This document shows positions 11,704-28,873 of a stretch of 32,000 nt of DNA, one piece after another. The position numbers were made by a program, and so were the translations under genes. The stretch is from Planctomycetales bacterium (GTDB taxonomy: Bacteria; 4484-113; JAFGCY01): contig CP060262.1 in assembly GCA_022646745.1 (NCBI GenBank), positions 2,250,001 through 2,282,000 of the forward strand, in the 5' to 3' direction. The notes beneath the pieces were generated by a model that worked only from the letters and a program-made list of their open reading frames with translations, was not told where the DNA came from and searched no databases. The first letter of the stretch is position 1, and every line of letters begins with the position of its first letter.

Positions 11704-11779
11704 GCAATCCCCCGATGATAGCTGGGTGTACTACGCAGTGTAAGCCACTCCTGTTTCAGCTGATCCGGAATCCTGCGCT

Positions 11780-11788
11780 TGTTACAAT
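11780..11788 (+). promoter_or_regulatory. Candidate extended -10 promoter element (TGtTACAAT) for the 11842 lipoprotein gene
   Basis: TG-n-TACAAT at 11780-11788 in the divergent CPBP/peptidase intergenic region. The -35 is poor (CTGATC at 17-nt spacing). It lies about 40 nt upstream of the GGGGGAGG SD at 11826-11833. Confidence 0.35.
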
Positions 11789-11841
11789 GGACACAGCCCG
11801 GAAAGCCGCAGTCTGGCGGCTCCGTGGGGGAGGACCCTTTA

Positions 11842-14800
11842 TTGCTTTATCTCAGACAGGCCTGCGCGCTCATCAACATTGGAATCCTACTCATTCTTGC
11901 CTCCTGCGGCGGATCGCAGCAAACGCCGGACGCTGGACAGGCTGGACAGCAGCAGGCAGCCCTGCAATCAGACGCAAAAGTGGAAGACAACAGTGTCGAC
12001 GGATTGCTGGAGGTGCTGATGCAACCCCAGCTGCCACTGGCGGATGGCCTGCGCGGGGTCAGCATTGCCGCACCGCAACAACTATTGGGAAGGCTGGATG
12101 CGCAATTCGATGCGAAGACCACATTGTGTGCTGGGTCTGGCTGGTTCATCGAAGGAGCGGCCTACCAGGATGGATTGCCAAACAGCAATGTCTCGCGCGA
12201 CGGTGTCGAGCTGACCGAAGGCCTCTATTCGCCGAGCTATGACGGGATGGCGCTGGAAAGCGGATCGTATGCGATCTACCGCTGGAACCTGCGCGGCTAC
12301 AGCGGTGAGCAGACCATCGGCTTCAGCTGGGTGCCGGATATGGCACCGGAGGATGCGGGGAACTGGTACATCGGGCTCGCCAACCTGCAGGATGACCGCT
12401 GGGAGTTCTTCGAGGGCCCGGATGACAACGTGCTGTCGATCAGCAGTTTCGGCCCCTACCGCAGTGCCACCGGTGATGTGCTGCTGGCCTTCGTGCTGCT
12501 GGGCAGTACGGAAGCGGCGCTGGCCCACATGGAGGCCGGCGTGCCGGAGAAGCGCGCCACCGGCGAGCTGGGCCTGCCGGAGACGGCACCGGATTTCCCG
12601 CTGCTGGCCAAGGCGAGCGTGCTGCCGGCGGCCGTGGACCTGTCAGCGGAGTGCGCCCCCGTCAATGACCAGATGCAGTGGGGTGCCTGCACGGCATTCG
12701 CCGTCGGCGACAGCGCATACAACCACGAACTGGGGCAGGTCTACGGAGCCTACGGCTGGAACCTGCAGTCCCCCGCCAACCGGGTCAGCCCGAAGTACCT
12801 CTACATCAAGAGCGGTGAGCTGGGCGGCTTCCCGGCCAGCGGGGATTACGGCCGCTACACGGATGAAGTGATTGACAACCTGATGAACTACGGCACCGCC
12901 ACGGATGCCAATGCACCCTACGACATGGTGTATGACAACAACTGGAGCAGCGCGGCGCTTGAGGATGCCAAGGTGCTGAAGATTGAGTCCTGGCGCGAAG
13001 TGCCCTGCAACACGGATGACGGCATCGACACTGTCAAGCGCATCCTCGCCGAACAGGGCAAGGTGCTGCCGATGCGCGTCAACCTCGACATCACCTTCCC
13101 CTCGCTGCTGCCGGGCCAGGTCTGGTACTACACCTGGGGCACGATTGGCGGGCATGCGATGTGCATTGTCGGCTATGACGACAGCAAGGGTGCCAGCGGT
13201 GCATTCAAGGTGCGCAACAGCTGGGGCCGCTTCTGGGGTGACAAGGGCTACTGCTGGATCGCCTACGAAAGCTTCCGGAACCCCTATGCCTTCATCCGCT
13301 GCTACACGATGACGGAGGATTACGGAACGGATGTTGTCGACCGATTCGGGCTGAATGCGCCAGCCATCCCGCCGGTGAGTGGGCTGTCCGCCACGCAGGG
13401 CACCGAGGAGGGCGGCATCCACCTGGCATGGGATGCATACAGTGGCGGCGGTGCGCTGCATGTGATGCGCGACTCAATTGGCAACGAAGTGGCCGTGCTT
13501 GACCCGTCCGAGACTGAGTGGCTGGACGACACGGTCAGCGATCCGTACGGGCATGTTTACTGGGTGCAGGCTGATGGTGCACAGTCCAGCCCGGCAGTGA
13601 CGGGATACATCGCGGCCCTGCCGCAGGTGCTGGAGGTGCTGCCGCTGGAAGGTATATCAGATGAGGGGCTGAGCATCGGCGCGTCGGTGACAGGCAGCGG
13701 TCCGATGAGCTTCGTCTGGGACTTCGGGCTGGGGGCCACGCCTGCCAGTTCTATCCAGCAGCGGCCTTACATCACGCTGAAGAACCCCGGTACCTATGGC
13801 GGCACACTGACTGTCAGCAATGCGATCGGCAGTGATGAGTTCAGTTTCCAGTACACGGTGCTGCCGCAGCCGGTGCTGATTGACCACGTCTACGGCACGA
13901 GTGGCTACAGCGGGGACCAGGCGATCATCGGGATTGTCAGCGACGGGCCGCCGCAGGGCTACAGCTGGGATTTCGGCGATGCCTGCACGCCCTCCACAAG
14001 CACCGATGGGGAACCATTCGTGACCTATGGAGCACCGGGCGTGTATGAGGCGACGGTGACAATCACCAACCTGGTCGGCGAAGATACGCTCAATTTCCTG
14101 ATCGCGGTGCTGGACCCGACTGAAACGAAGTGGAGCCAGCCCGGCTTTGATTCCCGCCGCAGCCGCCAGAGCCCGCTGGTTGGTCCGCAGGACAATTCGC
14201 GGCGCTGGCGCTTCATGGCCAGCTACCCCGAAGTGAATGTCAACAGCAGCCATGTGATGGATGTGCTGGAATTGCCGTCCGGCGACCTGATCGTGCCCTG
14301 CAGCACGAATGGCAATGGCAACAAGCTTTTCCGGATCACCCCCGCTGGCGCGGTGGTCTGGAAGAATGAGTACCCATTCCCGCTGAAGGGCTACCTGACG
14401 CAGCCGGTCAGCTCGGCGGATGGAGCGAAGCTATACCTCACCAGCGGGCGCAGTGTGTATTGCCTGGACAGCGCTGACGGCGCGGAGATCTGGCGCAATG
14501 ACGGTGACTTCAGTGAGAGCTACCACGTGCTGCTGGAGAATGCCAACGGCGAGGTTTACGTCGTGCGTAACGGCCGCTGGCTGGGCGTGTTTGACGGCGA
14601 GGACGGCAGCCAGCTCGGGGAGGAGTTCGTGCTGTCGGACAGGAATGGCAGTGTCGCCAATGCCGTGCTGGCCCCGAATGGCACGCTGTTCATCAGCACC
14701 GAGTTCAACCATGAGGACCGGCTGGTCAGCTTCGACACGGTGGAAAACGTGCCGCTGCATTCGATCTTCATGCCGCAGCTGGTACGCGGGATGGCAATCA

Positions 14801-15522
14801 GCCCGGACGGCCTGACCATCTACACGCTTGACGACCAGTGCGATACGCGGGCCTTTGACACCAATACCTGCAACATGGTCTGGTGGCAGAAGGGCACCCG
14901 CGGGGCCTTCAGCTTCAACCGCAATGCACCGGCTGTGATGGCTGACGGCACGGTGGTGGTTGCCAACCAGGGTGGCAAGGTCTCTGCGCTGGATCCGGCT
15001 ACGGGCGCGATCATCTGGGACTACGACCTCGAACTGGACCCGGACTGCCGCAGCACGCCGGCCATCGGGCGTGATGGCACCGTCTACTTCGGCGGCTGCG
15101 ACACGCGGCTGTATGCGGTGAAGGAAGGTGCACTGGTCTGGCAGTCCGATCCGGCAGGCACCTTGTACTTCAGCGGTTCGCCAACGATTGCCAGTGACGG
15201 CACGCTGTACTGCGGCTCTGACAATGGCATGCTGTGGGCCTTCGGGACCGGCTCGGACGAGCTGTTCTACCCGGCCTACGTCAACTCGGTCAGCCCGCTC
15301 AGTGGAACGCCTGGCAGCATGCAGACCTTCATGGCTGACGTGGCCGGCAGCGGAGTGATCAGCTACCAGTGGGACTTCGACGGCGGGGCCACGCCTGACA
15401 AGCCGACGGATGCGGCCCCGGAGGTGACGCTGGGCCTGCCCGGCACCTACGACTGCAAGCTGACGGTCAGCAATGAGCTGGGCAACCATACCTTTGACTT
15501 TGAGCTGGTGGTGGGCAGCTAG
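11842..15522 (+). CDS. Giant lipoprotein P1: N-module + papain-like C1 cysteine peptidase + Fn3 + 2 PKD + PQQ-like beta-propeller + PKD
   Basis: The track ORF starts at TTG 11779. I prefer TTG 11842 because GGGGGAGG lies 8 nt upstream and the candidate -10 box sits inside the longer version. Signal peptide with lipobox ILAS|C. N-module at nt 12220-12543. C1 head at about nt 12631-13308, with Gln (NDQMQWGAC), catalytic Cys in GACTAFA (12688-12690), His in GGHAMCIVGYD (13153-13155) and Asn in VRNSWG (13216-13218). Fn3-like segment (GIHLAWDAY...YWVQA). PKD motifs FVWDFGLG, YSWDFGD and YQWDFDGG. Propeller blades DGTVYFGGCDTRLYAV and DGTLYCGSDNGMLWAF. Confidence 0.85.
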   Translation: MLYLRQACALINIGILLILASCGGSQQTPDAGQAGQQQAALQSDAKVEDNSVDGLLEVLMQPQLPLADGLRGVSIAAPQQLLGRLDAQFDAKTTLCAGSGWFIEGAAYQDGLPNSNVSRDGVELTEGLYSPSYDGMALESGSYAIYRWNLRGYSGEQTIGFSWVPDMAPEDAGNWYIGLANLQDDRWEFFEGPDDNVLSISSFGPYRSATGDVLLAFVLLGSTEAALAHMEAGVPEKRATGELGLPETAPDFPLLAKASVLPAAVDLSAECAPVNDQMQWGACTAFAVGDSAYNHELGQVYGAYGWNLQSPANRVSPKYLYIKSGELGGFPASGDYGRYTDEVIDNLMNYGTATDANAPYDMVYDNNWSSAALEDAKVLKIESWREVPCNTDDGIDTVKRILAEQGKVLPMRVNLDITFPSLLPGQVWYYTWGTIGGHAMCIVGYDDSKGASGAFKVRNSWGRFWGDKGYCWIAYESFRNPYAFIRCYTMTEDYGTDVVDRFGLNAPAIPPVSGLSATQGTEEGGIHLAWDAYSGGGALHVMRDSIGNEVAVLDPSETEWLDDTVSDPYGHVYWVQADGAQSSPAVTGYIAALPQVLEVLPLEGISDEGLSIGASVTGSGPMSFVWDFGLGATPASSIQQRPYITLKNPGTYGGTLTVSNAIGSDEFSFQYTVLPQPVLIDHVYGTSGYSGDQAIIGIVSDGPPQGYSWDFGDACTPSTSTDGEPFVTYGAPGVYEATVTITNLVGEDTLNFLIAVLDPTETKWSQPGFDSRRSRQSPLVGPQDNSRRWRFMASYPEVNVNSSHVMDVLELPSGDLIVPCSTNGNGNKLFRITPAGAVVWKNEYPFPLKGYLTQPVSSADGAKLYLTSGRSVYCLDSADGAEIWRNDGDFSESYHVLLENANGEVYVVRNGRWLGVFDGEDGSQLGEEFVLSDRNGSVANAVLAPNGTLFISTEFNHEDRLVSFDTVENVPLHSIFMPQLVRGMAISPDGLTIYTLDDQCDTRAFDTNTCNMVWWQKGTRGAFSFNRNAPAVMADGTVVVANQGGKVSALDPATGAIIWDYDLELDPDCRSTPAIGRDGTVYFGGCDTRLYAVKEGALVWQSDPAGTLYFSGSPTIASDGTLYCGSDNGMLWAFGTGSDELFYPAYVNSVSPLSGTPGSMQTFMADVAGSGVISYQWDFDGGATPDKPTDAAPEVTLGLPGTYDCKLTVSNELGNHTFDFELVVGS

Positions 15523-15651
15523 GCTGGATGCGTAAGGCTGTCAGTGCAAGTTAGGGAACGGAGAGTAGAGCTGACAGTTTCTCCACACTTTCTCCGGGGA
15601 GCGACCATTGCCGCGTGGTTTGATTCCCCATCGCACAGAGAGGAAGCAAAC

Positions 15652-16257
15652 ATGCAAGACAGACTGCGCAGGACGATTGGCCTGCTGATCGTGGCCATGC
15701 TGGCCATTCCCACGGGCGTGGGGGCAAGCATGGAATGGACTGACGGACTGCTGGATGACTGCTCGGCCACCGGACTGCAGGCCAGCATCGGCACCAGCTG
15801 GGAAGCGGTGCTTGACAACGATCGCGGCGGCCGCAGTTCAATTGAGATAGAGTCCGGGGAAGGAACGATCAGGGCCTCCGGCAAGCTTGCACGTGGCAGC
15901 CTGTTCGGTGGGCCGGGCACTGCCGGAATCATGCTGCCGCTGGCGACGGACGGCGGTGAGTACGACATCAACCAGTGGGACGGGATCCGCGTCACGGTGC
16001 GGCGCAGTGGTGCATCAATGCTGCTGCGCATCCACGGGATGGAAATCGAGAATGGCGACCACTTCGCCGTCGACATCCCGGCGAGCACTGAGTTCGCCAC
16101 CTATGAGTTCCCCTTCAGCCGAATGGGCCAGGTGATGTCGCCGCAGATGCCCTGGCGCGGGGACCGGGTGACCGCCGTCGAGTTGATCTGCTGGAGCTTC
16201 CCGGCTGACAGCTTCAGTTTTGAGCTGGACAGCATCGAGTTCTATCGCAGCGAATAG
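15652..16257 (+). CDS. Small secreted protein, CIA30/CBM11-like beta-sandwich (tentative)
   Basis: Trimmed to ATG 15652 (GAGAGGAAG SD 5 nt upstream), giving 201 aa with signal peptide MQDRLRRTIGLLIVAMLAIPTGVGA. W.AVLDNDRGGRS, DINQWDGIRVTVRR, FATYEFPFSRM and FSFELDSIEFYR resemble the CIA30-family pattern as I remember it. The family call is unverified. Confidence 0.6.
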   Translation: MQDRLRRTIGLLIVAMLAIPTGVGASMEWTDGLLDDCSATGLQASIGTSWEAVLDNDRGGRSSIEIESGEGTIRASGKLARGSLFGGPGTAGIMLPLATDGGEYDINQWDGIRVTVRRSGASMLLRIHGMEIENGDHFAVDIPASTEFATYEFPFSRMGQVMSPQMPWRGDRVTAVELICWSFPADSFSFELDSIEFYRSE

Positions 16258-16272
16258 ACAGAGAAAATGCCG

Positions 16273-16310
16273 AAGCGGCAGACCGGTGCTCCATGGCCGG
16301 CCTGCCGCTT
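16273..16310. terminator. Hairpin between convergent genes (candidate bidirectional/intrinsic terminator)
   Basis: AAGCGGCAG (16273-16281) pairs with CTGCCGCTT (16302-16310), giving a 9-bp stem and a 20-nt loop. On the minus strand it is followed by CGGCATTTTCTCT (a U-rich tail for the 16321-19656 gene). The plus-strand tail is not U-rich. Confidence 0.45.
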
Positions 16311-16320
16311 GCCTTGCTGC

Positions 16321-19300
16321 CTAGTTCTCCACTTCAGGGTTGAACTTGACGATCATCAGGTCATCCTTGCCGCCGCCGTTGTCAACCGTGCCCTCCAGGT
16401 TGACCGCGCTGAGCGGGTAGCTGGTGGCGGATGCCCCGGAGCCGCTGGCGCTGATCGCCGGGCTGGCCTCAGTCACTCCGGGATTGCCGAAGTTGCCCTG
16501 GCCCATCTGCACCGGGTCCCAGAAGGGGGTGAAGCGCTTGGCACGGGTGCCGGCCACGTAGAGCTTGCCGGCTGCGCTGTAGGCCATGTCCTCCAGCTGC
16601 GGGTAGCCGGTGCCGTCCTCGTAGCGCTCCTCCCTGAGCAGGGTGCCCTCAGAGCTGATCTTCGCCATCACGTGGAAGTACTCACCGCCGACTTCGTCGT
16701 CAAGGAAGGTCACTGCGAACAGGTCGCCCGCCGAGTCCACGGAGATGCCGCGGCCGTAGGTGTTGACATTGCTGCCGCCGCGAGCGTCGTAGGCCCGCAC
16801 CCAGCTGAGCTCGGGGTTGCTGATGTCGTAGCGCACCACCAGGATGCCGTGCTCACCGAAGATGTAGTTCTCGCCGGTGGCGGTCAGGTAGACATTGCCG
16901 AAGTCGTCAGTCATCACGTCCGTGTCGTACTCGTTCTGGCTGTTGCCCCAGCTCTTCTGGGCCAGCACATCGCCGTTGGCCGGGTCGAACTGCAGCATCA
17001 GCAGGTCGCTGCCGCGGGAGGAGTTGACCACCGCCTGCCCGGCGACGAACACCTGGCCGGCGGAGTTGACATCGATGCCCTCGCCGAAGTCGTTGCCCGA
17101 GGTGCCCCAGCGCTTGCTCCACAGCAGGCTGCCGGCCGGGCTGATGCCGTGCACGAGGATGTCGATGTTGCCCTCGCCGAAGATGTTGTTGCCGACGGCG
17201 AACACGTTGCCGTTCGCGTCAGTCGCCACATCGGACAGCCTGCCGATGCCCAGTGAGATGCTCCACTCCTCCTGGCCGTCCGCCGCGTCCAGGCGGGAGA
17301 GCACTGAGGTGACGGCTCCGGCCTTGATCTCGGAGTATGCCACGTAGATGTTGCCCAGGTTGTCAGCCACGATCCCGCGGGCGTTGTCACGGCCGCCGGT
17401 GCCGTAGGCGCGCGACCAGATCACGTTGCCGCCGGCGTCGTACTTGACCACCAGTGCATCCCGGTCACCGAGGCCACCGATGGTGCTGCCGGCCACGTAG
17501 GCCGCGCCGGTGTAGTCCACGCAGACCGCCTCGATCTCCTCGTCATCGCCAAGCCCCCAGCTGTGGGCCCATTCCTCCTGCACCGGGTCGACGACGAGCT
17601 GGAACTCGTAGGTGGCGGTGCCGTTTGCGCCGGTCACTTCAAGGGTCGCATCGTAGATGTCATCACCAGTCAGCACAACGGTCGGGCTCGGCTCAGTGCT
17701 GGTATTGGGAACCGCTCCGCCGCCGAAGTCCCAGGCGTAGGTCAGGGTGCCGTTGCCAATCACGTCAGCGCTGAACTGGATCAGGGACTCGCTGCGGCCG
17801 CTGAGCGGCAGCACATCGCGGATGAAGGGGTCGGCGGCACGGAAGCCGGTGTCGCTGGCCGCCACGCTGGCGAAGCCGCCCACCTTGGTCTTGATCCAGT
17901 AGGCATAGGGCACGCCGGGGACGGCGGTGGTGTCGTCGTAGCTGGTGCTCTCCGGGGAGATCTCATCAATCAGGTTGTCATCGGTGCCGCGGTAAATCTC
18001 GTAGGAGGTCGCGCCGCTGGCCGCCGTCCAGCTCAGGCGGACCTTGTCAACGAACTCGCCGCTGCTGGCCTGGAAGTTTGCTGGCGGGTAGATGGTGGCG
18101 GTCTGGTTGCAGTACGGGGCTGCCACCAGGTCCGGGTTGAAGTCGAGGAACAGCTCGACCGCCGTGACGTAGTTGCTCTTGCTCGCCGCATTGGTGAAGG
18201 TGCTGTAGCCGATCCAGCAGTTGCCGTCATTGCCCCAGTCGGAGCCCCAGCTGTTGCGGACGTAGAAGGCCTGCTTGGCGTCGTTGTAGCCGATGATGCA
18301 CATCGCGTGGCCGCCGATGGACGGGCCGTTGTAGTTCCAGACATTGCCCTTGTCATACTTGGTGCTGCTGAAGTCGTCATCCAGCGAGGTCGTCATGTAG
18401 ACGGGCTTCTTCAGGATGGCAAGCGTGTGCTTGATGCGGTCGACATCCTGCAGCGTGGAATTGCCGGTGGAGAAGATGTACTGGAAGTTGGAGATGCGGA
18501 ACTTGTCAGCCTCGTCATGCGTGGCCTGGGTGAAGTTGTCCGCGCAGCTGAAGGAGCTGCCGTAGGGGGCGAGGATCACCGGCGGGGTGCCCTGGTTCAT
18601 CAGGGTCGCCATCACGTCGCTGGTGTAGCGTCCCGGTGAGGGGCAGCCCAGCCCGCTCAAGTCGGACTCAAGGTACAGGTAACGCGGGCTGACCTGGTTC
18701 CAGCCGCTCTGCGGCCAGCTTGCAAGGTTCCAGCCGGCGGCCTGGTACATGAAGTTCAGCTGGTAGTCCAGTGCGCCGTGGCCTGCGGCCCAGGCGGTGC
18801 AGGAACCGACGCTGCCCTGGTTGCCAACCGGGGCCATGCCGGCCTCGACGGATGCCGAAGAGGGCAGGCTGACGGTGCCGAACGGCGGCATGTAGTCGCC
18901 GGCGATCATCTCACCGGGCTTCGGCAGGAGGCCGGTGCCACGCAGCTCAGGGTCACCGAGGCTTATGCGCCCCAGTTCGAGCTGCTTCTCGCCCATCATC
19001 ACCAGTGCGACGAGGATGGTGCCGTCCTCACGCTCGTAGGGGGCAAGGCTGTCGACGGTCAGGGTGGAGTCATCCGGACCCATGTACCAGGTCCAGCGGC
19101 CCTCGTCCCAGTTGGCGAAGCCGACATACATGTCCTGCGGGAAGTCCGGGTCGTAGCCCTTGGACCACTCGAAGCCAACGGACTGCAGCTCAGTGCTGGC
19201 GGCGTAGCCCGGTGCGACGAAACGGTAAGTGGCCATCGCAAGGCCGGCACCGCCCTCGCCGGGCAGCCAGTCCGGGGAGAACACGGCATAGCCGGCGTCC

Positions 19301-19656
19301 ATCACCACATTCTGGCTGGGCAGCGTCGGGTCATAGTCCGCACCTTCCTTGTCCAGGTCATCCTGCACGAAGGAGACGGACTTGCCGGTAAGATCCGGCA
19401 GGCTGAGCTCACCGGGCTGGGCAAAGGATGCGCCCTTGCCGGACAGGCTGAAGGGGTCATCATCGACCGGGGCGTCAGGCCGGACCGGGACGGCGACCAG
19501 GCCATCCTCGGTCAGGCCGAAGTTGCCTGCAATCAGGTCGGAGGAGGAGCCCTCCTGGGATGCATCCAGCCCGGCGGTCCCGCCGCCACCGCCGCATCCC
19601 GCGACAATCACCATAATGACCAGCCCACACAGCAGGCTGTACAACAGATTCTTCAT
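16321..19656 (-). CDS. Giant lipoprotein P2: N-module + papain-like C1 cysteine peptidase + Fn3 + PKD + SBBP-type beta-propeller
   Basis: Trimmed to ATG 19654-19656 (GAGGTG SD 6 nt upstream), starting MKNLLYSLLCGLVIMVIVAG|CGGGGG (lipobox). N-module at nt 18955-19293. C1 head has Gln (GNQGSVGSC), Cys (18799-18801), His in GGHAMCIIGYN (18307-18309) and Asn in VRNSWG (18253-18255). Fn3 (VRLSWTAASGATSYEIYRG). PKD (YAWDFGGG). The C-terminal ~400 aa repeats the pattern G(T/N)(G/S)G.D.(A/G).GI.VD..G(N/Q)(I/V)(Y/F)VAG ... (L/V)V(K/R)YD..G...W, typical of SBBP beta-propeller repeats. Confidence 0.85.
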   Translation of the reverse strand: MKNLLYSLLCGLVIMVIVAGCGGGGGTAGLDASQEGSSSDLIAGNFGLTEDGLVAVPVRPDAPVDDDPFSLSGKGASFAQPGELSLPDLTGKSVSFVQDDLDKEGADYDPTLPSQNVVMDAGYAVFSPDWLPGEGGAGLAMATYRFVAPGYAASTELQSVGFEWSKGYDPDFPQDMYVGFANWDEGRWTWYMGPDDSTLTVDSLAPYEREDGTILVALVMMGEKQLELGRISLGDPELRGTGLLPKPGEMIAGDYMPPFGTVSLPSSASVEAGMAPVGNQGSVGSCTAWAAGHGALDYQLNFMYQAAGWNLASWPQSGWNQVSPRYLYLESDLSGLGCPSPGRYTSDVMATLMNQGTPPVILAPYGSSFSCADNFTQATHDEADKFRISNFQYIFSTGNSTLQDVDRIKHTLAILKKPVYMTTSLDDDFSSTKYDKGNVWNYNGPSIGGHAMCIIGYNDAKQAFYVRNSWGSDWGNDGNCWIGYSTFTNAASKSNYVTAVELFLDFNPDLVAAPYCNQTATIYPPANFQASSGEFVDKVRLSWTAASGATSYEIYRGTDDNLIDEISPESTSYDDTTAVPGVPYAYWIKTKVGGFASVAASDTGFRAADPFIRDVLPLSGRSESLIQFSADVIGNGTLTYAWDFGGGAVPNTSTEPSPTVVLTGDDIYDATLEVTGANGTATYEFQLVVDPVQEEWAHSWGLGDDEEIEAVCVDYTGAAYVAGSTIGGLGDRDALVVKYDAGGNVIWSRAYGTGGRDNARGIVADNLGNIYVAYSEIKAGAVTSVLSRLDAADGQEEWSISLGIGRLSDVATDANGNVFAVGNNIFGEGNIDILVHGISPAGSLLWSKRWGTSGNDFGEGIDVNSAGQVFVAGQAVVNSSRGSDLLMLQFDPANGDVLAQKSWGNSQNEYDTDVMTDDFGNVYLTATGENYIFGEHGILVVRYDISNPELSWVRAYDARGGSNVNTYGRGISVDSAGDLFAVTFLDDEVGGEYFHVMAKISSEGTLLREERYEDGTGYPQLEDMAYSAAGKLYVAGTRAKRFTPFWDPVQMGQGNFGNPGVTEASPAISASGSGASATSYPLSAVNLEGTVDNGGGKDDLMIVKFNPEVEN

Positions 19657-19956: not shown

Positions 19957-22917
19957 TTACGGCGCAGCACTCTCGAAGGCGAACAGCGTGCCGTTGGCGC
20001 CAAGGATATAGACCCGGTTGTCCGGCCCGATGGCCACGGAACTGTAGGCCAGGTCCGTTTCCGTGTCATAGTCCCATGCGATGTCGCCGTTGGGGGCCAC
20101 ACAGCGCAATATGCCGAGGTTGTCGCCGTAGTAAATGTAGCCGTCCTTGTCAACGCTGGGCATTGCGTACTGCGTCTTGCGGGAGAGTGTGCCGGTCCAG
20201 AGTTCCGCACCAGCCAGGTCAATCCGGCTGCATTCGTCGCCGATTGTCACGAGATTGTCGAGGCCGGGCATCAGTGCGATGCCGGTCACGTCGTCATTGT
20301 CTACAGGGTAGCTGAAGACGAAGCTGCCATTCTTCCATGCGTAAAGCTTAGGACCGCTGGTTGCGGCCACGAAGTCGCCATTAACCACATCATGCAGGAT
20401 CACTGCGGTCTCATCCACGGTTCCGCTTGCTCCCAGTTCCCCACCGGCGGAGCCATCGGTGTTGACGATGTAGACCCGGTTGCTGCCGCCACAGACGTAT
20501 ACACGGCCGTCACTGCCGATCGATGGCGCGCCGAAACGGCTGCCCTTGCTGTAGGACCAGGTCTCCGAACCGTCGCTCATTGCCAGCTTGAGTGTGAGGT
20601 CCGGTCCGCTGAAAATCTCGCCGCTGTAGTAGACACTGTCTTCGAAAAGGGTCGGCGGCCCGAAGTTTCCATTGGTATATGTGACTGACCAGTCCTCGGA
20701 GCCGTCCGGCTTCAACCTGAAAATGTAATCCGATTCCGAACCGTAGATGTACCCGTTGTCATCGATCGCAAGGCCGGCGCTGATGCTCTGGTTGCGCGCG
20801 GTGGCCCAGCGCAGCGAGCCGTCCTGCGCCAGCGAGTAAACATAGGGGTTATCCACACCGACGGTGAAGTAGATTTCGCCGAATGCACCGATCACCGGGC
20901 TGCTATGGCCGGTGATGCCGGTTTCGTAGCTCCAGTCCAGCTGTCCGTCATGCGGACCCGCCAGGCTGCTCAGTCCGGTATGCGCGGGGTCTGCACAGTA
21001 CATGTTCCAGTCACCGGCGCCGGGGTCAATGCCGATCGCCCAGCCCTCGGCGGATTCACTGGCGATGCTGCTGCCGGTCTCATTGGTGGCAACGATGGTG
21101 TAGGTGTGGTGTGTGTCATCAGACAGGCCCTCGTCGAGCCAGCTGAACAGGCCGACCACGGAATCGACGGGGCTGCCGCTGCCATCCCGGTAGATGTCGA
21201 AGCCGTTGGCATCGAACTGCTCATCCCAGCTGAGCTGGACATAGTCGGCGAATGTGCCCTGGCTGGCGGTCAGCCCGGTCGGCTGGGCGGGGATGACTGC
21301 ATCGTTGGGGGCAAAGGCCGTCAGGGTGCCGTCCGTCGCCGGGGCCAGCAGCATGCCGCCCTCGCAGATCGCGAATCCACAGCGGTAGCTGACAGCCGAG
21401 TCGTACTGCCACTGCAGCTGCAGGTCAGGGGTGACCGCATAGACGCTGCCGGAGGCCGTGCCGAAGAACACGGTGCCGTCCGCATCGATCACCACGCTGC
21501 CCTCGATCGGGCTGCCCGTGATGAAGGTGTCAAGCAGGTTGGCATCGCTGTCGTACTTGTACAGCTTGCCGTCCATGTTGGCGATGTAGATGTTGCCGTC
21601 CGGGCCCTCCGCGGGAGCACCCTCGAAGCTGGTTCCCGCGGCATGGGTGCCGATCTGGTTGCCATCGGCATCGACAGAGTAGAAGTTGCCATCCTGTGTC
21701 CCATAGACCAGCTTGCCGGTCGAGGTGATGCAGGGGCTGGCATGCGCCTCGCCCGTGCCGCTGTGCTCCCAGTTGAGTTCGCCGCCAGGGCTGACGCTGG
21801 CCAGTGCGCCGCCGGCCGTGCAGACATAGATCGTGCCGTCGGCCGCGATGGCAGGCGGGCAGTAGATCCCGCTTGAGGTGTCGAGGTGCCACTGCTCAAT
21901 GCCGAGGTAATCCAGCTTGTAGAGCTGGCTGCCCTGGGTGCCGACGATGATCGAACCGTCCTCGAGGATTGCCGGGCTGGAGTAGACCTCACGCGGCAGC
22001 TTGGTGTGCCAGGCGCGGATGCCGGCGCGGTTGACGGCGTAGACGTAGTCGGCGATGTCACCGAACACCACATGCCCCTGCGGGCCGATTGCGGGCGTTG
22101 AGCTGATCTGGTCCAGCACCTCGTGCTGCCACAGCAGGCTGCCATCGGTGTCCAGCGCAAACAGCGAGCCCTTCTGCTCCACCGGTTCATAGGACCCGAG
22201 GAAGATCGTGCCGTCCGCATTCTGCACCGGGGCGGAATGCAGCAGCGATTTCGGCAGCACGGTCTTCCAGTGCACGTTGGCACTCTCCACCACGTTGTCT
22301 GTGGAGTAGCCGCGCCGCTGGTTGGAACCACCAGCCGTTGGCCAGGCGCCGAGGTCCGTCGGGATGTTGGAGAAGTAGACCTCCACGCTGTCCAGCAGGT
22401 AGTACTCGCCGTCGTAGCCGAGCATTGCGAGGTAGGTGTAGCCGCCGGGGCTGGTGTACTGGCCGGGATCACCGCCGACGGAGAAGTTGTCAGCGGGCTG
22501 GTTGAACTCGATCATGCGCCAGCGGCCGTAGGTGTAGTCAGCCAGCAGCATGTAGATCGGGGAGAAGCCGGTGGCCTTTTCACTGGTGGTGTAGCCGACG
22601 GAAGCCAGCTCATCCACCGCACTGGAGTCGAAGCGGTAGATGGCGTAGGTCTGCTGGCCGATCAGCGCACCGAGGCGGATGCTCGTGTTTTCCACGCTGC
22701 TGAGGGCATTCGAATCCTGGAACTCATTGCCGAGGCGGGTGAAGCCAGCTAGGCTGGCTCCCTTCATTGCATCGAGCTCACCGATGCCGGGCAGTGCACT
22801 ACCGGCCGGAGTGGAATCCAGTGCTTCCGCATCGCCGGCGGGGTTGTGCCTGGCGGCCCCGCAGGCCGTAAGCAAACAGATGATTGCGATGGTCAGGGTG
22901 CTAAAGAGCAGTTTCAT
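19957..22917 (-). CDS. Lipoprotein with N-module + PQQ-like beta-propeller + Fn3 + second beta-propeller (no peptidase domain)
   Basis: 986 aa. GGGGAGACGA lies directly before ATG 22917. Signal peptide with lipobox MKLLFSTLTIAIICLLTA|C. N-module at nt 22372-22695 (TYAIYRF...VGYTT...LLADYTYGRWRM). Blades DGTIFLGSY, DGSIIVGTQGSQLYKL, DGTIYVCTAGGAL, DGNIYIANMDGKLYKY and DGTVFFGTASGSVYAV. Fn3 (YVQLSWDEQFDANGFDIYRDG...YTIVATN). A second, more degenerate propeller follows (GEIYFTV, NGYIYGS, DGRVYVCGGSNRVYIV, DGYIYYGDNLGILRCV, DNRVYILGANGTLFAF). Confidence 0.85.
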   Translation of the reverse strand: MKLLFSTLTIAIICLLTACGAARHNPAGDAEALDSTPAGSALPGIGELDAMKGASLAGFTRLGNEFQDSNALSSVENTSIRLGALIGQQTYAIYRFDSSAVDELASVGYTTSEKATGFSPIYMLLADYTYGRWRMIEFNQPADNFSVGGDPGQYTSPGGYTYLAMLGYDGEYYLLDSVEVYFSNIPTDLGAWPTAGGSNQRRGYSTDNVVESANVHWKTVLPKSLLHSAPVQNADGTIFLGSYEPVEQKGSLFALDTDGSLLWQHEVLDQISSTPAIGPQGHVVFGDIADYVYAVNRAGIRAWHTKLPREVYSSPAILEDGSIIVGTQGSQLYKLDYLGIEQWHLDTSSGIYCPPAIAADGTIYVCTAGGALASVSPGGELNWEHSGTGEAHASPCITSTGKLVYGTQDGNFYSVDADGNQIGTHAAGTSFEGAPAEGPDGNIYIANMDGKLYKYDSDANLLDTFITGSPIEGSVVIDADGTVFFGTASGSVYAVTPDLQLQWQYDSAVSYRCGFAICEGGMLLAPATDGTLTAFAPNDAVIPAQPTGLTASQGTFADYVQLSWDEQFDANGFDIYRDGSGSPVDSVVGLFSWLDEGLSDDTHHTYTIVATNETGSSIASESAEGWAIGIDPGAGDWNMYCADPAHTGLSSLAGPHDGQLDWSYETGITGHSSPVIGAFGEIYFTVGVDNPYVYSLAQDGSLRWATARNQSISAGLAIDDNGYIYGSESDYIFRLKPDGSEDWSVTYTNGNFGPPTLFEDSVYYSGEIFSGPDLTLKLAMSDGSETWSYSKGSRFGAPSIGSDGRVYVCGGSNRVYIVNTDGSAGGELGASGTVDETAVILHDVVNGDFVAATSGPKLYAWKNGSFVFSYPVDNDDVTGIALMPGLDNLVTIGDECSRIDLAGAELWTGTLSRKTQYAMPSVDKDGYIYYGDNLGILRCVAPNGDIAWDYDTETDLAYSSVAIGPDNRVYILGANGTLFAFESAAP

Positions 22918-22976
22918 TCGTCTCCCCTAGGTGCAGCATCCGGATTGGTCCCGGCTGCCAGGCATAGCCGGGTTCC

Positions 22977-22982: not shown

Positions 22983-23017
22983 AGGTGCGGGCAGTACGGA
23001 TGCGGCTTCCTGACCGT

Positions 23018-23023
23018 TATAAT
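23018..23023 (+). promoter_or_regulatory. Candidate -10 box (perfect TATAAT) 6 nt upstream of ATG 23030, implying a leaderless or near-leaderless transcript
   Basis: TATAAT at 23018-23023, followed by GGGCGG and then ATG 23030. The usual -10 to TSS spacing would put the transcription start on or next to the A of the ATG. The -35 is weak. Confidence 0.3.
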
Positions 23024-23029
23024 GGGCGG

Positions 23030-26000
23030 ATGAGCTACAGGGACAGGACAGTGAGGAATTGCAGGATCGGATTGGTGATCCTGCTATGCAGCATCGCCGC
23101 AGGCTGCGGTGGTGGCAACGAACTTCCCGCAGCAGGACCGTCGCAGCAGGCTGCCCAGCCACTGCCGGAAGCGCCTGCCAATGCAAGGCAGGTCAAGCTG
23201 GCGGTACGGATGAATCCGCAGCAGGAAATCAGCGAGCAGCCGGGCGGATTGAAGGCCGCCAGCGCGATCAGCATGCAGCTTTCCAGCATGCCACTGCCCG
23301 GGCGCAGCACTTCCGCCTCGGAAGTCGAGGTCGCTGCGGTGGATTACCGCACGGACCTGCTGAACAGCCGGGTGGAGGTGAAGGGCGATTACCTTGTTTA
23401 CCGTCCGGTCTGGAACAATGCGATCTTCGACGACCTGAGTGATGCGGCCTATGCAATCTACCAGGTGGACCTGACCGGATACACCGGTGATCCGACCATC
23501 GGCTTCAACTGGGCTGAGAACGGCCTGCCGCGCATTCCGGACAAGTACTTCGTCGGCCTGGCGAACTGGGATGCCAACCGCTGGAGCTGGTTCGACGGCC
23601 CGCTGGACCAGGTGCTGACACTGGATGACCTGGCTCCCTATACGGATGCCAACGGCAAGCTGCTGCTCAATGTGCTGGCCCTGCAGCGCGAAAGTGTGGT
23701 GGTGCTGCGCAACATGACGATTGGTGCGCCGGAGATGCGTGGTACCGGCTTCGAGTATGAGGACATCCCGGTGCAGACCAGTGCGCCTGCGCTGTATGTG
23801 CCGACCCTGCCGGGCAGTGTCGACCTGCGCGCCGGCTGTGCACCGATCAATGACCAGGGTTACTGGGGCAGCTGCACGGCCTTTGCGGTTGGCGACGGCG
23901 CCTACAACTATGAGCTGTACAGCATCTACGAATCACTGGGCTGGGACCTGACGGGCACAGCCTTCCGGGTCAGCCCGAAGTTCCTCTACATCGAAAGTGG
24001 CAAGGACCAGGGCTTCCCGCCGGGTGGCGACTACGGCCGCTGGACTGATGTGGTGGCCGACGGCCTGACCCGTTTCGGCATTGCCACCGAGCTGAATGCC
24101 CCCTATGACTATGACTACAATGACAACTGGTCGATCGCGGCACTGAATGACGCCGCGGTGCTGAAGAGCACCGGCTATGTCCCACTCGCCAGCCACAGCA
24201 CGGCGGCGATCGAGGGCATCAAGTCCGTGCTGGCCTTCCAGCAGCGCCCGGTGCTGGTCAGCACCCAGGTGGACTACGGCCTGATCACCTACGCCCCCGG
24301 CCAGGTCTGGCATTTCCAGGGGCCGAGCTTCGGCGGGCATGCGATGCTGATCGTCGGTTATGACAATGGCAAGGAAGCCTTTCTCGTGCGCAACAGCTGG
24401 GGCACGGACTGGGGCGAGGACGGCTACCTGTGGATGGCTTACGACACCCTGACGCATCCCTACAACTGGTATGTGCAGTGCGGCTACATCACGGATGAGT
24501 ACAACGAGGCCACGGCCCAGCGATTCACCGGCAACTCGATCAGCCTGCTGCCGCCTGACAACCTGGAGGCCTCGCAGGGCACCGCTGGCAGCAGCATCGC
24601 GCTGAGCTGGACGCCTGTGGACGGTGCCGACGGCTACCGCATCTACCGTGACACCCGGCAGAACCTGGTGCAGCAGGTCGGGGCGGTCAGTGAATACACC
24701 GACAACAGCGTGCTTGATGAACTGGCGCACTCCTACTGGGTGACGGCGCTGAAGGACAGCTCGGAAAGTGCCCACAGTGCACCGGACCTCGGCTATGTGG
24801 CGCAGTCCCCGCAGGTCAGCGGCGTGTCCCCGACGAGCGGGGCCGAGGGCCAGACGATCCGCTTCATCCCGCAGGTCAGCGGTGACCCGCAGGCCACCTT
24901 CAGCTGGGACTTCGGCGGTGGTGCCAGCCCGAACACAAGCAGCGATCCAGGGCCGGTGGTCGTGCTCGGCAGCGAGGGCAGCTACGACGCCAGCCTGACG
25001 GTGATTGGCGCGGAAGGCAACCAGAAGTTTGACTTCACACTCGAGGTCAAGCTTAACCAGCCGCCGGCTGCCTACCTGTTCGACCCGAACAACGGCAAGG
25101 CCATCGCACCCTATGAGTGCACATTGGATGCCACCAGTGGCGACAGCGACGGCTGGATTGTGCTGTACGAGTTTGACTGGGAGAATGACGGCATCTATGA
25201 CCTGGTGACAACCGAGCCGGTTGTGCAGCATACATACACGGAGCTCGGTACAGTCACAGCGAAGGTGCGCGTAATGGATGATGCCGGGCTGTATGACACG
25301 GCGACGGAGCAGATCACTATCGAACCGGATAACTTCGCTCCATACCCGACGATCACCGCCACCCCGCCGTCCGGGCCTGCCCCGCTTGATGTCGAGTTCG
25401 ACTCTGCGGGCAGCTATGACCAGGACGGCTTCCTGATCTACTACGAGTGGGACTTCGAGAATGACGGCACGATCGATGCCGAGGGCGACAGCCTGACAAC
25501 GACTGACCATGTCTACCCGGCGGACGGCACCTACACCGCCATGCTGCGGGTGACTGACAACGAGGGAGCGACGGGTGAGATCACCACGGAAGTCGCGGTC
25601 GGCCTGCCTCTGATCGGGGGCTGGACCAGCCACGCGATCCGAACCTGGACGGACGGCACCAACTCGCGCCGCATCAATGCAACCCTCGTCGGTGGCAACC
25701 CGGCGGTCAGTGTGACAACGAACAACACCGGCATGGAGTATGTCAGCAGCGGCGTGGCCGTGCCGGATGACAGTTCCGACTGGTCCGTAATGACGGCGCT
25801 TGCCAACGGCAGCCTGCCGAACTCCACGAAGCCCTATGGACTGTGCAACCTCTCAGGTGTGCCGCTGGTCAGCTACTCCGGGGGCTCGCTGTCGTCCATC
25901 AAGTGGACCGGTGCGAGCTGGCTGGACATGAATGTGGACGGCACGGCGAACTGTGGTGAATCCAGCAGCATTGCAATCGTTGCGGGCAAGCCGGCGATTG

Positions 26001-26701
26001 CCTACACCTATCCCAGTAACCCGAACAGCATCTACTACGCCTATTCGACTGAGTCTGATCCTGCGTTGGCTGGCGACTGGGTGGTGACGGAACTCGAGAC
26101 GGACGGCAACCCCGTTGTCAGCGACACCCTGCAGCTGATCGAGATCGGCGGAATGCCGTATGTGGCTTATGGCAAGAATGGCGAGGCACCGAATACGCAG
26201 AAGCGGCTGTGGCTGGCCCGCGGCCTGACTGCCACCCCGACCGGTACTGCTGACTGGGCGCGGCATGAAGTCGACCCGGCGAAGAATACCGGGCTGTACA
26301 TGTCGATCACGGAACTGGGCGGCCGGCCCGCGATTGCCTATGGCTTCGCCGACGGCCCGCTCGGGATGCGCTTCGCCTGGGCGGACAGTGCGAGCCCGGC
26401 AAGCACGGATGACTGGAACATCATGGCGGTCGAGACCGGCAAGCGCGGGATACCCTCGCTGGCGGTGGTCGGCGGCGTGCCGATGTTCAGCTACGTTGCC
26501 AACTCACCGAACGGCGGACTGACGCTGGCGAAGGCCAGCAGCAGCACTCCGGCCGGTGACGGGGACTGGAGCTTTGAGCGGCTGATCCCGCAGGACATCG
26601 GCGGCGGCCAGAGCCCGCTGCTCGAGGTCAATGGCCTGCCGGCGATCATCTACGGCTGGAACGCCGCTGCCAATGTGGTGTTCATCACACCTGCACCCTA
26701 G
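23030..26701 (+). CDS. Giant lipoprotein P3: N-module + papain-like C1 cysteine peptidase + Fn3 + 3 PKD + unassigned 7x GxPAIAY-repeat (propeller-like) domain
   Basis: Trimmed to ATG 23030, starting MSYRDRTVRNCRIGLVILLCSIAAG|CGGG (lipobox). ATG 23000 and GTG 22931 are alternatives. N-module at nt 23384-23725. C1 head has Gln (NDQGYWGSC), Cys (23873-23875), His in GGHAMLIVGYD (24338-24340) and Asn in VRNSWG (24392-24394). Fn3 (IALSWTPVDGADGYRIYRD). PKD motifs FSWDFGGG, YEFDWENDG and YEWDFENDG. The C-terminal repeats occupy nt 25613-26698. Confidence 0.85.
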   Translation: MSYRDRTVRNCRIGLVILLCSIAAGCGGGNELPAAGPSQQAAQPLPEAPANARQVKLAVRMNPQQEISEQPGGLKAASAISMQLSSMPLPGRSTSASEVEVAAVDYRTDLLNSRVEVKGDYLVYRPVWNNAIFDDLSDAAYAIYQVDLTGYTGDPTIGFNWAENGLPRIPDKYFVGLANWDANRWSWFDGPLDQVLTLDDLAPYTDANGKLLLNVLALQRESVVVLRNMTIGAPEMRGTGFEYEDIPVQTSAPALYVPTLPGSVDLRAGCAPINDQGYWGSCTAFAVGDGAYNYELYSIYESLGWDLTGTAFRVSPKFLYIESGKDQGFPPGGDYGRWTDVVADGLTRFGIATELNAPYDYDYNDNWSIAALNDAAVLKSTGYVPLASHSTAAIEGIKSVLAFQQRPVLVSTQVDYGLITYAPGQVWHFQGPSFGGHAMLIVGYDNGKEAFLVRNSWGTDWGEDGYLWMAYDTLTHPYNWYVQCGYITDEYNEATAQRFTGNSISLLPPDNLEASQGTAGSSIALSWTPVDGADGYRIYRDTRQNLVQQVGAVSEYTDNSVLDELAHSYWVTALKDSSESAHSAPDLGYVAQSPQVSGVSPTSGAEGQTIRFIPQVSGDPQATFSWDFGGGASPNTSSDPGPVVVLGSEGSYDASLTVIGAEGNQKFDFTLEVKLNQPPAAYLFDPNNGKAIAPYECTLDATSGDSDGWIVLYEFDWENDGIYDLVTTEPVVQHTYTELGTVTAKVRVMDDAGLYDTATEQITIEPDNFAPYPTITATPPSGPAPLDVEFDSAGSYDQDGFLIYYEWDFENDGTIDAEGDSLTTTDHVYPADGTYTAMLRVTDNEGATGEITTEVAVGLPLIGGWTSHAIRTWTDGTNSRRINATLVGGNPAVSVTTNNTGMEYVSSGVAVPDDSSDWSVMTALANGSLPNSTKPYGLCNLSGVPLVSYSGGSLSSIKWTGASWLDMNVDGTANCGESSSIAIVAGKPAIAYTYPSNPNSIYYAYSTESDPALAGDWVVTELETDGNPVVSDTLQLIEIGGMPYVAYGKNGEAPNTQKRLWLARGLTATPTGTADWARHEVDPAKNTGLYMSITELGGRPAIAYGFADGPLGMRFAWADSASPASTDDWNIMAVETGKRGIPSLAVVGGVPMFSYVANSPNGGLTLAKASSSTPAGDGDWSFERLIPQDIGGGQSPLLEVNGLPAIIYGWNAAANVVFITPAP

Positions 26702-26703
26702 GT

Positions 26704-28650
26704 TCAGGGGCGGTAGCAGCGGATCGTGTCGTCACCGTTGGTCCTGATCAGCAGGCTGCCGTCGGACAGCATGATCAGCGGCACGACTGACTCCGCCGTG
26801 GTGTAGTCATAGGTGAAGCGCCAGCGCTCATTCTTGTTCGGCTTGAGGCAGACCAGGTCCTTGAAGATGCTGACGTAGATATCCTCACTGGCATCCACGA
26901 TCGGTGCCGCCGGGCCTGCACTGTCTTCTGTCAGGGACCAGTCCTTCAGGCCCTCCATGTTGAGTGCATACATGATCTTGCCCTCTCCCGGCAGCAGCAG
27001 GTGTTCGGTATCCAGCTCGAAGCCGATGGCGGGATAGCTGAGCGGGTGATTGCCACTGGGAAGTTGGAAGTCCCCGAGCTTGGTGCAGTTCTGGTCGCAG
27101 AACATCACGTATGCGGCTGAACCGGCGACGAGCATAACGTTGCCAGTGCTGCCGATCACCGGCGAATTGAGCAGCTTGGAATTGGCTGAAGTGCTGTCCA
27201 GCAGGCTGCCGGACATGTCCAGCGCATAGCAGTCCGAAAAGTCGGTGCCAAAGTAGACCTGCCCGCCGTCACCGATGGCGGCAATGTTCCTCGGCAGTCC
27301 GCTCGGTGTGGTGTAACTCCAGTTGACAGTGGAGGTCGCTTCAGGGTCAACGCTGCGCAGTTCATTCGTGCCGTAGCTCAGCAGCAGGCCGCCATCCATC
27401 GTGAAGCCGTGCATGTCCCGCACACCGGAGGAGGCCAGCAGGCGCCAGTCCTCGGTCAGGTCGCTGTTGAGCGCCAGCACGGCATTGTCCGCCGTCGGCG
27501 AACCGTTGTCAACAAGGGCATAGACCCGTCCGTCCGGGCCGATGGCGCGCAGGCGAAGGAACTTGCCGCTGCCTTCATCGAAGTGGGTGATCTCCATTCC
27601 CGTGTCGGGGTCAATCGCATAGACCTTGCCATCATGGTTGGCGGTGTAGATCGTGCCATCGGCGGCCTGCAGAATTCCGTCCGGGCCATCTATCACATCA
27701 AAGCTCCATGCCGGTTCATCTGTGGCACTGAGCAGGGCGGGGCCGCTGGCCGGGCTGCGGCGGTTCTGGTAGCGGTTCGCACCGGCGCACCACCAGGGAG
27801 CATGGGCCAGTGTATTGAATTCCAGCAGCAGTTCGGACTTAGCGCCGATGTTGTCAGTCGCACTCAGGCGCAGGCTGGTCCGGCCGCCGAGGTAGCACTG
27901 CCAGTCGTCAGTGCCGGGCGCGGTGCCCTGGTGCTCGATGCTGCCATCGGCATTCCAGTCCCAGCTGAAGTCGGCCAGCGTGCCGTCGACGTCGCGGCTG
28001 GCAGTGGCGTCCACACTGATCATGGACGGGGCAGTGCCTCCGTCACCATTGGTCACAACAGAAATCACGGGCGGGGAATTCTCGCCGAGCCGGATCCACT
28101 CCAGCCGGCCACCACCCGCAGTGGCAATCATCACGACGGCCAGCACCAGCCCGTCATTGCGGCGGTAGGGCGCGGAGTCGCCGAAGTCCCAGCTCGGGCC
28201 GTTGACTGGCTGCCAGTCCCAGCGGTCGCTGTCCCAGTTGGCCAATGCCGCGAGGACCGTGCCGTTGGCGGGGGTGGCAGCGTCATTCCAGTTCAGGTTC
28301 AGCTTGCTGGTAGTGGTGCCGGGATCAAGCTGGAAGTCATACATCGCGTAGCAGATCTCGGAGCGCAGCGGCGGATCACCGGCAGGGCTGAGGGAGAACA
28401 CCGCCTGGTCAGCATCCGCTGTGACATTCTGCGATGAAGCAGGCATGAATTCCGCTCCGCTGTGGATCCGCAGCTCGAGCACGGCACTGCTGCTACGCTC
28501 GACGGCTGACGGGGCGGGCAGCCCATTGCCTGGGCCGGCGGATGCTTCGGGCGGGGTGGCCGGGGTGGCTCCTGAGCTGCATGAGACGGCCGGCAATGCC
28601 AGGGAAAGCAGCAGTGGAAGTGCAAGCACCAGGGTGGTATATCGCTTCAT
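26704..28650 (-). CDS. Lipoprotein with N-module + PKD + PQQ-like beta-propeller (no peptidase domain)
   Basis: Trimmed to ATG 28648-28650 (GGGGAGACGA then CT then ATG), starting MKRYTTLVLALPLLLSLALPAVS|C (lipobox). N-module at nt 28084-28410 (CYAMYDF...LNLNWN...ALANWDSDRWDW...APYRRNDGLVLAVVM). PKD motif FSWDWNADG. Blades DGTIYTANHDGKVYAID, DGRVYALV, GGQVYFGTDFSDCYALD and EDIYVSIFKDLVCL. Confidence 0.85.
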   Translation of the reverse strand: MKRYTTLVLALPLLLSLALPAVSCSSGATPATPPEASAGPGNGLPAPSAVERSSSAVLELRIHSGAEFMPASSQNVTADADQAVFSLSPAGDPPLRSEICYAMYDFQLDPGTTTSKLNLNWNDAATPANGTVLAALANWDSDRWDWQPVNGPSWDFGDSAPYRRNDGLVLAVVMIATAGGGRLEWIRLGENSPPVISVVTNGDGGTAPSMISVDATASRDVDGTLADFSWDWNADGSIEHQGTAPGTDDWQCYLGGRTSLRLSATDNIGAKSELLLEFNTLAHAPWWCAGANRYQNRRSPASGPALLSATDEPAWSFDVIDGPDGILQAADGTIYTANHDGKVYAIDPDTGMEITHFDEGSGKFLRLRAIGPDGRVYALVDNGSPTADNAVLALNSDLTEDWRLLASSGVRDMHGFTMDGGLLLSYGTNELRSVDPEATSTVNWSYTTPSGLPRNIAAIGDGGQVYFGTDFSDCYALDMSGSLLDSTSANSKLLNSPVIGSTGNVMLVAGSAAYVMFCDQNCTKLGDFQLPSGNHPLSYPAIGFELDTEHLLLPGEGKIMYALNMEGLKDWSLTEDSAGPAAPIVDASEDIYVSIFKDLVCLKPNKNERWRFTYDYTTAESVVPLIMLSDGSLLIRTNGDDTIRCYRP

Positions 28651-28873
28651 AGTCGTCTCCCCACGAAGCAATATCCTAGCAGAATCGACCTCTCGTGCCT
28701 GATTCGGGCGAATTCAGAGAAAAACCGCCAGTCTCATCTTGTGGAGCCAATGAAAATATGATAATTTTCTGCGCATCGGGAAACGGCAATGCGGAGATGG
28801 ATCCGATGTCGCTGCGGCGGCACTACTTACGGCAGTTCCCCGGCACTTATCACCAGGATGGGAGTTGGAAATC

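Follow-up and report, generated by a model that had tools for sequence, protein, structure and literature searches.

A predicted jelly-roll module without a Pfam or NCBIfam entry heads a family of modular lipoproteins of a little-known bacterial lineage

Six lipoproteins encoded in a 32,000-nucleotide stretch of a Planctomycetales bacterium genome (GTDB lineage 4484-113; GenBank assembly GCA_022646745.1, contig CP060262.1, forward-strand positions 2,250,001 to 2,282,000; the whole stretch is referred to here as the window, and coordinates are counted from its first letter) share an N-terminal segment and then continue into proteases, PKD domains or beta-propellers, which raises the question of what this segment is and what it does for proteins that otherwise differ. 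Each of the six open reading frames (ORFs), here named paralogues A to F, carries one homologous copy of the segment, the module, downstream of a signal peptide, a lipobox Cys and a low-complexity linker. The module is a genuine domain sequence family that is absent from Pfam and NCBIfam. The proteins of this neighbourhood (UNM06985-UNM06998) are encoded on a 4.11-Mb contig, and the six genes and their modules are listed below with lengths in amino acids (aa) and, for the modules, E values against a hidden Markov model (HMM) of the family and against a held-out HMM built from 63 outside homologues without the window sequences.

2653..4290, minus strand: paralogue A (545 aa; UNM06985.1), module and PQQ-like beta-propeller (Pfam Beta-prop_ACSF4 1.7e-66, PQQ_2 1e-27)
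3727..4131, minus strand: module of A, aa 54-188 (family HMM 1.5e-37; held-out HMM 3.8e-34)
11842..15522, plus strand: paralogue B (1226 aa), module, Peptidase_C1, Fn3-like segment, two PKD domains, PQQ propeller and PKD domain
12136..12555, plus strand: module of B, aa 99-238 (family HMM 2.4e-41; held-out HMM 1.9e-38)
16321..19656, minus strand: paralogue C (1111 aa; UNM06995.1), module, Peptidase_C1, Fn3-like/PKD part and SBBP-type propeller
18940..19374, minus strand: module of C, aa 95-239 (family HMM 2.2e-42; held-out HMM 9.4e-40)
19957..22917, minus strand: paralogue D (986 aa; UNM06996.1), divergent module, propeller, Fn3-like segment and propeller
22363..22752, minus strand: module of D, the most divergent copy, aa 56-185 (five-paralogue profile 2.7e-4; held-out profile 1.8e-7)
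23030..26701, plus strand: paralogue E (1223 aa), module, Peptidase_C1, Fn3-like segment, three PKD domains and a seven-repeat C-terminal domain
23306..23740, plus strand: module of E, aa 93-237 (family HMM 2.5e-41), the sequence modelled by AlphaFold2
26704..28650, minus strand: paralogue F (648 aa; UNM06998.1), module, PKD-like domain and PQQ-like propeller
28069..28479, minus strand: module of F, aa 58-194 (family HMM 1.6e-31; held-out HMM 1.2e-25)

Signal peptides and lipoboxes were read directly from the translations. All six N-termini show the basic n-region, hydrophobic core and lipobox of a lipoprotein-type signal, with the lipobox Cys at aa 21 in A (LLAGC), 22 in B (ILASC), 21 in C (VAGC), 19 in D (LTAC), 26 in E (AAGC) and 24 in F (AVSC), and the linker between lipobox and module is rich in Gly, Ser, Gln, Pro and Ala. 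Paralogue B starts with a TTG codon at 11842, with GGAGG 8 nucleotides upstream. On these features the six proteins are predicted to be made as lipoprotein precursors. The translations bear out the common N-terminal build that an initial annotation of this DNA had described for the six ORFs, and all of the motifs that it had quoted by eye from the modules are present in them.

Homology of the six copies, which had likewise been proposed by eye, is established by significant pairwise matches for A, B, C, E and F and by profiles for D. The B, C and E modules match one another at E values of 1e-16 to 1e-20, A matches E at 3e-11, and F matches A, E and C at approximately 1e-7. Pairwise matches of the D module are only marginal (0.005-0.012); it was found at the homologous position by a profile of the other five paralogues, and the held-out profile, which retrieved all six copies, recovered it with the stronger E value listed above. 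Profile searches of all six frames of the window found no seventh copy.

Conservation begins approximately 28 residues upstream of the boundary first drawn, with the consensus G..(F/Y)(D/E)..LP.N(R)V....F.P.W, and the module is therefore approximately 140 aa long (135-145); the initial annotation had positioned it correctly but, at approximately 110 aa, had made it too short. At E ≤ 0.01, none of the six modules is matched by a Pfam or NCBIfam model. Searches of 69 single module sequences against Pfam at E ≤ 1 gave only scattered single matches to unrelated families, and module profiles searched against the sequences of the PDB found nothing better than E 0.1 (the best match in one search being 0.18). 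The module is thus without Pfam, NCBIfam or PDB-sequence assignment, in agreement with the earlier view that it lies outside named families. Pfam and NCBIfam recognise only parts downstream of the module in A to F, and these C-terminal parts are ordinary members of the families seen in NCBI-annotated C1 peptidase, PKD and PQQ-like propeller lipoproteins. The NCBI annotation of such proteins, which names A, C, D and F 'PQQ-like beta-propeller repeat protein', skips the N-terminal approximately 240 residues, including the module.

The model obtained with AlphaFold2 for the E module and the 69-sequence alignment is all-beta, with ten strands, a pLDDT of 93.5 and a pTM of 0.87 (a single-sequence run on the E N-terminus gave a pLDDT of only 41). 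Foldseek searches with this model against the PDB retrieved the jelly-roll carbohydrate-binding modules (CBMs) CBM86, CBM35, CBM6, CBM36 and CBM65, the lectins Nictaba and PP2, Cry-toxin domains and phage baseplate proteins, at template modelling (TM) scores of 0.43-0.50, identities of 8-14%, E values of at least 7e-3 and probabilities of up to 0.99, while viral models yielded tail proteins and receptor-binding domains at TM scores of approximately 0.5 (to 0.52). Since TM scores of 0.45-0.52 and E values of at least 1.5e-3 across the PDB and viral comparisons indicate likeness at the level of the fold only, the module is described here as a predicted beta-jelly-roll of CBM/lectin type, an assignment to fold class. 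The structural comparison that the initial annotation had suggested upheld the absence of a characterised family, and the predicted fold is not exotic. Conserved features include an invariant Trp, a GLANW..RWDW hairpin and AYA.Y; the most conserved columns lie in strands, and loop lengths vary.

To obtain the range of the family, HMMER was run exhaustively over 1.84 billion cluster representatives (clusters at 50% identity), of which 1028 proteins, each representing a metagenomic cluster, carry the module at E ≤ 1e-3 and 491 at E ≤ 1e-10; an HMM search of this kind had been proposed from the outset. Architectures were surveyed in 156 proteins, namely the best 150 of the 1028 matches and the six window proteins. 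Sixteen of these (the six and ten representatives) were scanned with Pfam, and domains in the remaining 140 were assigned only by HMMs of the domain types present in the window; for the ten representatives, the Pfam scans agree with the HMM-based architectures. The module is the first domain, in a single copy, in 156 of 156 proteins, which fall into 19 architectures. It starts at a median residue of approximately 92, a lipobox-like motif is present in 120 of the 156, and the tether from Cys to module has a median length of 55 aa. The first domain after the module is PKD (65 proteins), Peptidase_C1 (56), a PQQ-like propeller (15) or SBBP (5), and no domain type of the window was detected in 15 mostly short proteins, several of them fragment-like. 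Pfam matches in the 16 scanned proteins were confined to Peptidase_C1, PKD, propeller and Y_Y_Y models, and the names given to family proteins at source are 'hypothetical', 'PKD domain-containing protein [bacterium]' or 'BamB'. The surveyed proteins thus generally show what had been proposed from the six window genes, a handle that stays constant at the N-terminus while the extracytoplasmic domains behind it vary (Peptidase_C1, PKD, PQQ-like and SBBP propellers).

The module was found only in metagenome-assembled genomes (MAGs) with candidate-phylum (UBP7, 4484-113) or unclassified labels, and was absent from all 77 loci of other phyla that encode C1-peptidase relatives. A metagenome scan with a 10-sequence alignment identified 8 loci. 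MAGs with the HKST prefix, one of which is compared with the window below, come from a saline activated-sludge study that reported three UBP7 MAGs (PMC8495973), and a review describes the phylum 4484-113 as having genomes of 1.5-4.1 Mb with 44-64% GC and as occurring in activated sludge (PMC11382960), a description with which the window agrees. One 1827-bp contig binned as 'Anaerocolumna sp.' (L003; JBAVPE010000092.1) holds a fragment that is 64% identical to E, module included; this contig is most likely mis-binned and not an occurrence in the Firmicutes.

Downstream of the module, the Peptidase_C1 domains of B, C and E score 37.9, 35.2 and 57.2 bits against PF00112 (cutoff 20.7) and keep the catalytic Cys, His and Asn motifs G(A/S)CTAF, GGHAM.I(V/I)GY and RNSWG. 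In these three proteins the catalytic domain follows the module after only approximately 25 aa, and Pfam found no I29-type propeptide in them. The rest of the downstream parts consists of PKD domains, PQQ/BamB-like propellers and SBBP-type propellers. The catalytic domains of B and E are located as follows.

12625..13269, plus strand: papain-like (C1) catalytic domain of B (PF00112 2.7e-09; motifs Q..WGACTAF, GGHAMCIVGY and RNSWG)
23807..24448, plus strand: papain-like (C1) catalytic domain of E (PF00112 3.3e-15; motifs QGYWGSCTAF, GGHAMLIVGY and RNSWG)

The function favoured here, tentatively and by analogy, is that of a membrane-proximal base or adaptor domain of modular lipoproteins. The lipid-anchored Cys would be followed by the flexible tether, one module and then the working domains (papain-like protease, PKD/Fn3-like spacers, propellers), so that the module, beside the membrane anchor, might dock to a constant component of the envelope, or space and orient the distal domains away from the membrane, and the distal domains would perform the substrate-specific work of ligand binding or of proteolysis of extracellular protein. 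Because the N-terminal position is fixed whatever the partner, the role would be tied to the anchor and not to any one substrate, and this fixed position, together with the single copy whatever the cargo, favours an anchor-related role over substrate targeting by a CBM. Judging from the model, a glycan ligand for the module is plausible. Several observations weigh against this base or adaptor role. The conservation of the invariant Trp, the GLANW..RWDW hairpin and AYA.Y exceeds what a passive spacer would need, and the predicted CBM-like fold would be compatible equally well with the binding of external substrates. In addition, a few members, such as P0069, have an apparent type-I signal peptide rather than a lipobox, and no neighbouring gene that might encode a binding partner recurs across the approximately 15 loci compared by ORF calls and Pfam.

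An unlikely but serious alternative is a genuine carbohydrate-binding or lectin function, by which the module would direct the attached proteases and propellers to an external substrate that bears glycans, for instance extracellular polymeric substances, glycoproteins, or the cell walls of other organisms or necromass in sludge flocs. Its best structural neighbours are indeed CBM86, 35, 6, 36 and 65, Nictaba, PP2 and phage receptor-binding tail domains (Foldseek probabilities up to 0.99-1.0), and the conserved residues of the family alignment are rich in aromatics (W70, W83, W89, W94, W96, Y50 and Y53); a second jelly-roll protein, the CIA30-like product described below, is also encoded inside the array. 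These structural matches are, however, at fold level only, none of the 69 module sequences matched a CBM in Pfam, and the 16 Pfam-scanned proteins contain no glycoside hydrolase, lyase or esterase. CBMs typically vary in position and number, whereas the module is always N-terminal and single, and its most conserved columns are those of the strands, with loops that vary in length.

Two further proposals, both improbable, give the module a part in protein traffic. According to the first, it would be the recognition handle of a lineage-specific system of surface-lipoprotein display, in which a dedicated envelope machinery or polymer would bind the jelly-roll and export or dock the protease and binding-protein repertoire; such a display would be an N-terminal analogue of sorting and anchoring of the type IX secretion system (T9SS) or SLH type. 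In the second, the module would serve as a tag for sorting or export, a folded domain recognised by a dedicated outer-membrane machinery that would flip or translocate the lipoproteins to the surface, as an N-terminal counterpart of the C-terminal domains of T9SS or of Slam-dependent domains. A tag of this kind would be consistent with the strictly conserved place by the lipid anchor, the one copy per protein, the presence of the module on unrelated cargo, the strong and cargo-independent selection on it, and its restriction to MAGs with candidate-phylum or unclassified labels with absence from the 77 C1-peptidase loci of other phyla. Against it, no candidate translocon gene recurs beside the arrays in the approximately 15 loci and no cleavage motif was identified. 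Known lipoprotein export signals are short motifs or C-terminal barrels, and a 140-aa jelly-roll that would be kept in the mature protein differs from these. Finally, the module might act within the same molecule on the papain-like protease, as a prodomain, inhibitor or chaperone in place of the I29 propeptide; its position directly before Peptidase_C1 in B, C, E and 56 of the 156 proteins and the lack of a canonical propeptide in these C1 domains would speak for this. The proposal was rejected on the architectures and is essentially excluded, because approximately 100 of the 156 members, including A, D and F, are without a protease and have PKD domains or propellers after the module; a predicted jelly-roll also differs from the helical fold of I29.

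The nearest described design to a membrane-proximal base or adaptor, in functional terms, is that of BACON (PF13004) and DUF1735 (PF08522) of the Bacteroidota, which are N-terminal lipoprotein domains before diverse C-termini and have been proposed to act as membrane-bound spacers or presenters (PMC11216935). As in these, the module is a predicted beta-sandwich placed directly after a lipoprotein signal and linker, it precedes diverse C-terminal working domains, and many paralogues occur per genome. It differs in having no Pfam match, in being a ten-strand jelly-roll of approximately 140 aa instead of an Ig-like sandwich of approximately 80-100 aa, in its partners (proteases, PKD domains and propellers versus carbohydrate-active enzymes) and in its occurrence in UBP7/4484-113-labelled MAGs without the context of a polysaccharide utilisation locus. 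The initial claim of an undescribed architecture was therefore overstated, since the design of an N-terminal lipoprotein handle has this precedent. With the jelly-roll CBMs and Nictaba/PP2 listed above the module shares the overall sandwich and a size of 120-150 aa, but it belongs by sequence to no CBM family, is not attached to carbohydrate-active enzymes in the 16 scanned proteins and has a fixed N-terminal position. Like the C-terminal domain of T9SS and the Slam-dependent barrels, it is a constant folded domain on unrelated cargo within one lineage; those domains, however, are C-terminal and have known translocons, whereas the module is N-terminal and no translocon candidate was found at the loci compared.

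The history of the array differs in part from what had first been supposed. Identities among the six window modules are only 15-36%, and closer counterparts exist in other genomes for B (68%), E (52%), A (45%) and C (42%); for D none is closer than 27%, and for F none is closer than 34% besides its own cluster representative. On this comparison of paralogue with orthologue identities, recent tandem amplification was rejected, and the copies represent old paralogous subfamilies. Gene order is also conserved in another bin, the ENA bin 'Bacteria_4484_113', which keeps the order B-like, D-like, E-like, F-like and in which the D-, E- and F-like proteins share 50-66% identity with those of the window, so that the description of the family as locally amplified does not hold. 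Tandem clustering itself, in contrast, is typical of the family, with arrays of three or four copies on other contigs, including L098, where four copies stand in a rearranged gene order. The effector domains had also been called interchangeable; however, in 116 of 141 cases a module and its nearest neighbour are followed by the same type of first domain (38% expected by chance), and this clustering of modules by downstream architecture suggests that domain shuffling is rare.

The genomes closest to the window are the ENA bin and the MAG HKST-UBA01 (L001; labelled UBP7), the latter with 92-96% nucleotide identity over 16118-31333. The dN/dS of the modules relative to HKST-UBA01 is 0.06-0.16, and among E orthologues the module is 75-80% identical, the protease domain 74-75% and the linker 35-42%; purifying selection on the module is as strong as on the protease domain. 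Over 25300-27700 identity to HKST-UBA01 falls to 73-88% without gaps, compared with 93-100% otherwise, and this divergence hotspot coincides exactly with the 3' ends of the convergent genes E and F, where their distal C-terminal domains are encoded. The C-terminal domain of E has a dS of 0.82 and a dN of 0.20 in this comparison, with dS at approximately 0.2-0.3 elsewhere. The hotspot looks like a recombination tract or an allelic replacement of the distal domains. The same C-terminal region of E, approximately 360 aa (residues 861-1222; 25610-26698), consists of approximately seven repeats with the core G(G).P(A/V)..Y and has no Pfam match; it is probably a propeller type missing from annotation, and a domain of this type is present in 13 of the 156 family proteins. 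A further segment of Fn3-like appearance, with the consensus L.A(S/T)QG....I.L.W....GA..Y.IYR, lies after the protease domain in B (aa ~530-590), C (~540-610) and E (~520-590) and between the two propellers in D (~545-640); at E ≤ 0.01, Pfam gave one weak Ig_3 match only, in E, over these segments.

The surroundings of the six genes bear on how the array came to its present place. The five copies B to F were initially said to fill a 17-kb stretch almost without other genes, and the array stands, with one unrelated gene inside it.

15649..16257, plus strand: CIA30-like secreted protein outside the module family (Pfam CIA30, PF08547, 1.1e-06; signal-peptide-like N-terminus from Met36)

A comparison by hhalign found no relation of the CIA30-like protein to the module. 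The gene is absent from this place in HKST-UBA01, and in L002 it sits after the F-like gene, with 68% aa identity. Paralogue A is separated from the B-F array by a carotenoid biosynthesis cluster at 4345-11018 on the minus strand, comprising genes for a phytoene/squalene synthase, two phytoene-desaturase-like FAD oxidases, a GT2 glycosyltransferase, an alpha/beta hydrolase and a PF04240 carotenoid synthesis protein; this gene content suggests that its product may be a glycosylated, possibly acylated carotenoid. Three other genes of the window can serve as anchors for comparison, as their counterparts flank the A orthologue in another genome, L099 (GCA_041395205.1).

206..2650, plus strand: HerA-like ATPase
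11086..11703, minus strand: Rce1-like CAAX protease
29772..31337, plus strand: malic enzyme

In L099 the A orthologue lies between malic enzyme, HerA-like ATPase and Rce1-like protease, and both the carotenoid cluster and the B-F array are missing. This makes the array a variable insert flanked by conserved anchors, and the arrangement of the window relative to L099 is read from the sequences as an insertion and inversion between these anchors. As GC content is flat across the window (0.61-0.66), there is no compositional island, and a horizontally acquired island of this kind was rejected.

Taken as a whole, the sequence family of the module is new, and its fold class and architectural logic are of known kinds. 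No concept is overturned and the finding is not conceptually surprising, as the fold is common and a handle with variable C-termini is precedented. It nevertheless reveals a sizeable domain family, with more than 1000 clusters at 50% identity, that current annotation misses and for which a high-confidence model now exists; the practical value lies in an HMM and a model that are ready for a new Pfam entry or domain of unknown function (DUF). The family also offers a clean test case, from beyond the model phyla, of lipoprotein presentation at the envelope, and the module is a marker of what are probably the main extracytoplasmic proteases and binding proteins in a little-known lineage of activated sludge and sediments.

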